Translations under genes and position numbers: made by a program
Notes under the pieces: model-generated
The model's input: only the letters and a program-made list of their open reading frames with translations
What the model was told of the DNA's origin: nothing
Databases searched by the model: none
Assembly: GCF_041886205.1 (NCBI RefSeq)
Contig: NZ_CP169031.1
Length of the DNA stretch: 64,000 bases
From: Escherichia coli
GTDB lineage: Bacteria; Pseudomonadota; Gammaproteobacteria; Enterobacterales; Enterobacteriaceae
Direction: 5' to 3' (one strand)
Part shown: positions 37,150 to 38,354 of the stretch, piece after piece
Position numbering within the stretch: the stretch's first letter is position 1
Layout: each line of letters opens with the position of its first letter

Positions 37150-38354
37150 GCGAGCTGAGCTATCTGGAAAAACTGTTGGATGGGGTTGAGGTTGAGTGGG
37201 TAACATTGGGTTCTATGGCAGATATCGGTACTGGAAGCTCAAATCGTCAGGATGAAAGCGAAAATGGAATTTATCCATTCTATGTTCGCTCAAAGAATAT
37301 CTTGAAGTCAGATACCTTTGAATTTGATGAGGTAGCAATAGTCATTCCTGGTGAAGGTGGAATTGGCGACATATTTCACTATGTTGAGGGGAAATATGCT
37401 CTACATCAAAGGGCGTATAGAATTCGTATCACAACTAATGCCGTAGACACGAAGTTTTTGTATTACTTCATGTCATCTAGCTTTAAGCAGTACATCTTGA
37501 CAAAAAGTGTGGGTGCTACCGCCATTTCGATAAGAAAACCCATGCTGGAAGGATTTAAAGTTCCCATTCCTAGCCCGGACAACCCGGAAAAGTCCCTTGC
37601 CATCCAGTCTGAAATTGTTCGGATTCTGGATAAATTTACTGCAATTACCGCTGAGCTTACCGCTGAGCTTACTATGCGTAAAAAACAGTACAACTACTAT
37701 CGCGACCAGTTGTTGAGTTTTAAAGAGGGTGAGGTTGAGTGGAAGACTTTGGGGGAAATTGGGAATTTTACATATGGATATGCAGCCAAAGCCATGGACT
37801 CAGGAGATGCCCGTTTCGTGAGAATTACTGACATAAATAAAGACGGGAAGCTATCGAAAGAAAACCCAATGTACGTTGAATTAAATGAGGAAAATGAGAA
37901 ATATACCTTAGAAAAAAATGATTTACTCATGGCAAGGACTGGTGCAACCTTTGGTAAAACAATGATTTTTGAAGAAGATTATCCAGCAGTATACGCTGGT
38001 TTTTTAATAAAGTTGAACCTAAATGAAACGATTATTAATGCCAAATATTACTGGCACTTTGCACAAAGTGATTTTTTTTGGGAACAGGCTAATAAATTAG
38101 TATCTGGTGGTGGGCAACCACAGTTTAATGCTAATGCACTGAAACAAGTCAGAGTACCTATTCCATACCCATCTCACCCTCAAAAATCTTTAGACGAACA
38201 GGGGCGTATTGTGGATATTCTAGATAAGTTTGATGCAATCGCAGCTTCCATCACTGAAGGTCTTCCGCGTGAAATCGAGTTACGCCAAAAACAATACGAA
38301 TACTACCGTGATTTACTGTTCAGTTTCCCAAAACCTGAAACTGTCAGTAATTAA
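37146..38354 (+). CDS. hsdS: Type I restriction-modification system specificity subunit HsdS (Type IC)
   Basis: 402 aa; two target-recognition domains separated by a central conserved region containing the TAELTAEL repeat; conserved C-terminus [26 protein letters not shown]. Confidence 0.95.
37647..37670 (+). repeat. 2 x 12-bp tandem repeat ACCGCTGAGCTT inside hsdS central region
   Basis: Encodes TAEL-TAEL; the copy number of this repeat sets the spacer length of the recognition site in EcoR124-type systems. Confidence 0.85.

Follow-up and report, generated by a model that had tools for sequence, protein, structure and literature searches.

The window, by which we mean the whole 64-kb stretch of DNA analysed here, holds three co-oriented and intact genes of a type I restriction–modification (RM) system, all on the + strand: hsdM (35587–37149), encoding a type IC methyltransferase subunit of 520 aa; hsdS (37146–38354), encoding a specificity subunit of 402 aa; and hsdR (38476–41592), encoding an intact restriction/translocase subunit of 1038 aa. 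The stop codon of hsdM overlaps the start of hsdS by 4 nt (ATGA), and this hsdM–hsdS unit is followed by hsdR downstream. HsdM matches the EcoR124 M protein (7bst_D) with 1117 bits over residues 1–519 (24 differences by hand count, approx. 95% identity) and the hsdM model TIGR00497 with 636 bits (cut-off 243). HsdR matches EcoR124I HsdR (2w00) over its full length, residues 1–1038, with 2278 bits, and the model TIGR00348 with 766 bits. NCBIfam and PADLOC models concur on the subunits of the cassette. The 121-nt gap between hsdS and hsdR contains a sigma-70-like match, a candidate promoter for hsdR alone as in EcoR124-type regulation (38382–38411, +; 9/12 consensus match, in a region without excess over shuffled sequence), and a terminator-like hairpin followed by a T-run is seen in the sequence downstream of hsdR (41786–41808, +). 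An Rfam scan of positions 32000–42500 yielded no matches. The gene set and order, the identity of HsdM and HsdR, the layout of HsdS with two target recognition domains (TRDs) and the presence of a tandem tetra-amino-acid repeat all agree with type IC membership. By every criterion that can be tested on sequence, the cassette is a complete, apparently intact type IC (EcoR124-family) RM system.

The genes doc and humD lie just upstream of the cassette. The surrounding 24 kb match E. coli plasmids of approximately 95–100 kb at 94% coverage and 96–97% identity, with coverage of approximately 70% against P1, P7 and SJ46. On these alignments the window is a P1-like (Punavirus) phage-plasmid of the E. 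coli type. An isolated Punavirus, vB_EcoM-673R5, also has a type IC cassette adjoining phd/doc. No relevant publication came up when the literature was searched for P1-like phage-plasmids with type IC systems. Between humD and hsdM (33563–35586, approx. 2 kb) the window has no ORF of at least 103 aa, the longest being 102 and 97 aa, and no Rfam match. The equivalent stretch of NZ_CP122822.1 encodes two hypothetical genes and a homologue of DNA polymerase III theta; the window may thus have a rearranged or decayed version. Towards the other end of the window we observed a 21-bp array of 4.8 copies with consensus GATGTGTGCTGGCGGGATATA (63841–63942) and a second 21-bp pair (63755–63796). Both look similar to the RepA iterons found in the P1 plasmid replicon, in keeping with a P1-like element.

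The alignment of HsdS with the EcoR124 S protein (243 bits) runs from end to end, with the three conserved regions near-identical and both TRDs divergent. HsdS contains two Methylase_S domains (PF01420; aa 15–175 and 197–378). All its parts lie on the + strand. An N-terminal conserved region (aa 1–18; 37146–37199), delimited by near-identical alignment to EcoR124 HsdS and relatives, precedes the N-terminal target recognition domain, TRD1 (aa 19–143; 37200–37574). A central conserved region follows (aa 144–206; 37575–37763), conserved in DNA and protein with EcoR124 and relatives and corresponding to the first coiled-coil helix, which spaces the TRDs (PMC3874165). The C-terminal target recognition domain, TRD2 (aa 207–350; 37764–38195), is succeeded by a C-terminal conserved region (aa 351–402; 38196–38351), the second coiled-coil helix, placed by translation and alignment to EcoR124 S. 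TRD1, which falls in cluster 0 of the TRD1 clusters described below, is rare: among 5,426 complete E. coli genomes it is carried by one record, that of plasmid pYLPD4a, the only one to cover this part of the query. TRD2, likewise in cluster 0 of its own clusters, is common; hundreds of records match query positions 418–1209 at approximately 97%, and it is also found in many P1-like plasmids and chromosomal type IC loci. A protein 100% identical to the window HsdS (P0001) is present in E. coli on 40 contigs, the longest of 98.6 kb. In the PDB, the matches of the window HsdS are EcoR124, with different TRDs, and a distant archaeal S subunit only.

Within the central conserved region lie two perfect tandem copies of the 12-bp unit ACCGCTGAGCTT (37647–37670, +), read directly from the window sequence. 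They are in frame with the hsdS ORF and encode TAEL-TAEL, residues T168 to L175. Tandem Repeats Finder places the repeat at 37645–37672, with period 12, 2.3 copies, 100% matches and no indels. No other perfect tandem repeat of 12 bp exists in the 64-kb window, and exact matches to the unit in the window are confined to its two positions. The codons that flank the array are ATT (37644–37646; I167) and ACT (37671–37673; T176), at positions where canonical EcoR124-type alleles have CTT (L) and AAC (N). Among 120 homologues fetched, I167 and T176 occur together only in P0001 and the fragment P0012, and T alone at the second flank position is seen again in other alleles. [quoted passage not shown] Direct reading, Tandem Repeats Finder and translation bear out the repeat, and the two PF01420 domains, the EcoR124-like conserved regions and the near-identical HsdM and HsdR bear out the type IC assignment.

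The consequence of changing the number of units has been established in published work. EcoR124I has two TAEL units and recognizes GAAN6RTCG, while EcoR124II has three and recognizes GAAN7RTCG; one state turns into the other when the 12-bp repeat, which lies in the first connecting helix, undergoes unequal crossing-over (PMC3874165). One unit amounts to just over one helical turn, and its addition shifts the TRDs approximately 0.34 nm apart and rotates them by approximately 36° (PMC3874165). Three units are present in EcoDXXI and EcoPrrI, and the behaviour of hybrids matches prediction (PMC3874165). When one unit was removed by engineering, EcoR124II became EcoR124I and a different set of T5-like phages was restricted; the primers used in that study contain a DNA unit identical to the one in the window, with the canonical flanks (PMC10644984). 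The preliminary description was thus correct in stating that two versus three copies distinguish EcoR124I from EcoR124II, with N6 and N7 spacers (PMC3874165), and the unit removal has been seen to alter phage defence (PMC10644984). Within the central conserved region, tetra-amino-acid repeats (TAEL, LEAT, SEAL or TSEL) are regarded as a hallmark of type IC, and members of one type I family have identities above roughly 70% (PMC10030836). Natural isolates of Neisseria gonorrhoeae differ in the LEAT count of NgoAV, and this count correlates with recognition of GACN6TGC versus GACN7TGC (PMC6789123). The mechanism proposed in the preliminary description is the published one: it is already known, from work going back to the late 1980s. 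In the window HsdS, 13 residues lie between ILDKF and RKKQY in the central helix and 17 between ILDKF and RQKQY in the C-terminal helix; a third TAEL unit would make the two helices equal in length, which agrees with the remark in a review that three units appear optimal (PMC3874165).

The closest known counterparts are EcoR124I and EcoR124II (R124 and R124/3, the type IC prototype, from plasmid R124), which have in common with the window the gene order hsdM–hsdS–hsdR, the HsdM and HsdR similarity given above, the N-terminal, central and C-terminal conserved regions of HsdS and an identical 12-bp unit, present in the window in the two copies of the EcoR124I state. Apart from the flanking residues, the window differs in its carrier, a P1-like phage-plasmid instead of R124, and in both TRDs, so its half-sites are not GAA and RTCG. 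EcoDXXI and EcoPrrI belong to the same family and have the same repeat, but in three units (the N7 state, as in the pYLPD4a allele) against two in the window. The type IC-like NgoAV also has a tetra-amino-acid repeat in its central conserved region, but the unit is LEAT and not TAEL and the host is another one; its specificity hinges in addition on a homopolymer tract in which frameshifting truncates HsdS, a tract that the window hsdS lacks. Among the structures matched, chain A of PDB 7bst is labelled 'EcoR124II specificity protein' yet contains two TAEL units (404 aa). This matches the EcoR124I state as defined in publications, and the database name is misleading.

A census of copy number with a three-unit central conserved region as query returned 1354 records from the 5,426 complete E. 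coli genomes. We sampled 60 of these at even spacing and took the number of units from record span minus query span, a few rows having odd spans. Two units were present in about 26 of the 60 and three in about 25, while four units were seen in two records, five in one and six in one; the four-, five- and six-unit arrays were verified by reading the DNA. For a six-unit query aimed at arrays of at least four units, the ranking was confounded by BLAST pieces overlapping on the repeat, and only record spans were used. A codon-degenerate scan of IMG/VR viral contigs found 43 two-unit and 30 three-unit arrays in an hsdS context and none that was longer. On one of these contigs (L090), two TAEL-TAEL arrays, both built from ACCGCCGAGCTG, lie 1232 nt apart (10551–10573 and 11783–11805) in an hsdS-like context; this may reflect a pair of neighbouring hsdS genes or the presence of a repeat in each helix. 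The 152 full-length HsdS proteins grouped into 34 clusters by TRD1 and 20 by TRD2, and unit number varied within 10 of the former and 6 of the latter. Besides the window's TRD pair, a second one, that of L022 and L043, exists in both two- and three-unit forms.

Unit number also differs between loci that are otherwise almost the same. L003 (four units) and L004 (five units) are separated by two substitutions in 1920 bp plus one unit, and L050 (three units) and L051 (six units) by one substitution in 4896 bp plus one 36-bp block of three units. The units themselves carry a further record of change. In 26 distinct arrays, 18 synonymous variants of the unit are used (for example ACAGCGGAGCTT, ACAGCCGAGCTT, ACCGCCGAGCTG and ACAGCTGAACTT), and 18 of the 26 arrays are internally homogeneous. 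The mean difference between units of one array is 0.28 nt, and shuffling the units among arrays raises it to 1.75 nt (p ≤ 1e-4). At the level of the family, TAEL units evolve in concert. Units that are alike within an array are young copies of one another, and this needs ongoing duplication and loss, or conversion, inside arrays. Across E. coli and its phage-plasmids the repeat is a truly dynamic array of two to six units under concerted evolution, a modest addition to a known mechanism.

The longer arrays were seen in a particular setting. All six inspected records with at least four units, which represent four independent lineages from E. coli chromosomes and one P1-like plasmid, are disrupted by insertion sequences (IS). 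In L003 and L053 (both four units) hsdS is 5′-truncated by IS3 and hsdM is absent, and L004 (five units) is a remnant of the same kind; in L051 (six units) hsdM is truncated by IS3; and hsdS is split by an IS3-family element in L052 (four units), a 96.6-kb P1-like plasmid, and by ISEc45 in L054 (four units). The baseline was 3 disrupted out of 10 two- to three-unit systems, taken as a systematic subsample of the same collection. Comparison of the four lineages with this baseline (Fisher, one-sided, p = 0.035) is suggestive only, and we treat the association between at least four units and IS disruption as a lead and not as a result. The first unit of L056 (three units), L003 and L053 (four units) and L004 (five units) carries the same rare GAA variant, and L056, L053 and L004 have one HsdR protein accession in common; on these marks the four records are a single chromosomal lineage with three, four and five units.

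One tentative explanation, which we consider possible though not the likelier case, is that arrays of at least four units are tolerated only in type IC systems that are already dead, or themselves cause the death of the system. If the former, gain of units would be frequent and purged by selection from functional systems, and long arrays would build up only after inactivation. If the latter, more than three units would confer a new or relaxed specificity, the unprotected host genome would be attacked, and the survivors would be those in which an IS had knocked out hsdM or hsdS. Four-unit mutants may be promiscuous. Functional systems appear confined to two or three units. IS insertions are, as a separate observation, common in type IC cassettes: IS1203 lies downstream of hsdS in NZ_CP122822.1 (L161), the closest complete plasmid relative of the window, IS1 lies inside hsdS in p21AR0707A and IS3 inside hsdM in strain EC26 (L059 and L056 among the records).

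Taken with the published mechanism, these observations make it very probable that the feature at 37647–37670 is the TAEL spacer repeat of an intact type IC system on a P1-like phage-plasmid, in an EcoR124I-like two-unit state and subject to rare change in unit number. The central conserved helix, which holds the repeat, would pair with the C-terminal conserved helix and so hold the TRDs apart. Two units would correspond to the EcoR124I state, with a spacer one bp shorter than in the three-unit state, and the spacer of the window enzyme would be N6 and not N7 if its TRDs bind in the EcoR124 register. Two kinds of event would add or remove units: changes inside the array, through unequal crossing-over or slippage during replication, and homologous recombination in which the conserved flanks pair with those of another type IC hsdS allele. 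For an array of just two 12-bp units we expect both to be rare, showing up as differences between lineages and not as a high-frequency phase switch. That unit number determines spacer length we take from the literature; the identity and layout of the system, the alleles of two to six units, the changes in situ and the concerted evolution come from the present analysis.

The main competing explanation is that the repeat is effectively fixed in the window element, and that differences between alleles come mainly from homologous recombination between type IC cassettes, in which crossovers within the conserved central region import two- or three-unit modules, and not from slippage or unequal crossing-over in the array. 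We regard this as rather unlikely, but several features of the data favour it. The same TRD pair is found in hsdM/hsdR backbones that differ by 3–4% while hsdS differs by only 0.5–2%, as expected if recombination moves hsdS as a whole or in modules. One HsdS, P0006, is found in identical form adjoining phd/doc on P1-like contigs and in a chromosomal island beside GTPase/dynamin-like genes (L166 versus L167/L168). Genomes often contain several type IC loci, at up to six places, and E. coli strain PD4 has a three-unit allele on its plasmid and a two-unit allele on its chromosome with TRD2 in common (H1 and H34). TRDs also reassort freely with either copy number. These patterns of shared sequence indicate that phage-plasmids and chromosomes exchange hsdS modules, and recombination between co-resident type IC cassettes provides a second route for swapping unit number, as it does for TRDs.

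The HsdS of plasmid pYLPD4a from strain PD4 has three units and is 99% identical in amino acid sequence to the window HsdS over both TRDs. A clean two- versus three-unit pair was sought within this TRD pair, and the nearest still differs by six substitutions in hsdS and by approximately 3% across hsdM and hsdR. The closest two-unit relatives are separated from the pYLPD4a allele by those six hsdS substitutions and by approximately 170–190 across the 6-kb cassette, and the window cassette by 241. With the nearest pair this diverged, recombination instead of slippage in situ could be the source of the three-unit allele for the window's TRD pair. Import cannot, however, account for L003/L004 or L050/L051, where the flanks are identical over kilobases, nor for homogeneous arrays of lineage-specific synonymous variants, which require duplication and loss, or conversion, within the array. 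Change within the array and recombinational import are compatible routes and not mutually exclusive, and both have a place in the reading that we prefer, a spacer repeat with rare change in unit number.

A true high-frequency phase-variation switch, in which clonal populations would mix two- and three-unit alleles with differing methylomes, is far less probable. Phasevarions of type I systems driven by simple sequence repeats (SSRs) resemble the window family in that a change of repeat number in hsdS alters methyltransferase specificity (Atack et al. 2020, PMC7383803); moreover, unit number varies between the near-identical loci described above, units evolve in concert, and R124 and R124/3 were classically described as alternative specificities of a single plasmid. 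SSR phasevarions, however, have long hypermutable tracts, which usually turn the reading frame on or off at a high rate, whereas the window has two in-frame 12-bp units, far below known hypermutable tracts, with no frameshifting and a low expected rate, and on these grounds we rejected an SSR-type phase-variable locus. Nor does unit number vary among close isolates with the same allele: all 10 database clusters with the window's TRD pair (approx. 75 contigs) have two units, and the lone three-unit allele of this pair, that of pYLPD4a, sits on the diverged cassette. The arrays in IMG/VR have two or three units only, and the clean changes in situ are all in IS-inactivated loci. The 120 best protein homologues of the window HsdS all have two units as well, though this list is skewed towards the two-unit query and TRD2 and was kept out of the family frequency estimates. 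Exact look-up of in-silico one-, three- and four-unit derivatives of the window HsdS and its relatives in a collection of 15 billion proteins found none; the native three-unit protein of pYLPD4a is also absent from that collection, which makes this negative weak. That the tandem duplication reflects chance or neutral change with no bearing on specificity, a view to which the shortness of the repeat and nothing more lends itself, is refuted by conservation and the literature: a perfect 12+12 duplication is expected approximately 0.004 times per window (64000 x 4^-12, by hand arithmetic), position and frame are conserved across hundreds of type IC hsdS genes, and published experiments link unit number to spacer length.

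From these comparisons we infer that the window array changes rarely, on an evolutionary scale, by both routes, within the array and by recombination, and not by phase variation. The preliminary description had expected the system to be able to switch specificity. On an evolutionary scale this expectation is supported by the three-unit allele with the same TRDs, the unit changes in situ and the concerted evolution of the family; for frequent switching it is not supported, given a two-unit array and a TRD pair that is two-unit throughout its 10 clusters.

The mechanism has long been published and the locus opens no new question; the concerted evolution of the units and the long arrays in disrupted systems are minor additions. 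For the carrier, the analysis confirms that this P1-like phage-plasmid brings with it a complete defence system of the EcoR124 family, in which a two-unit repeat would set the spacing of the target and the gain of a single 12-bp unit would retarget the system. This bears on predicting which phages and plasmids are excluded by the element, and which methylation motif is to be expected in the strains that carry it.
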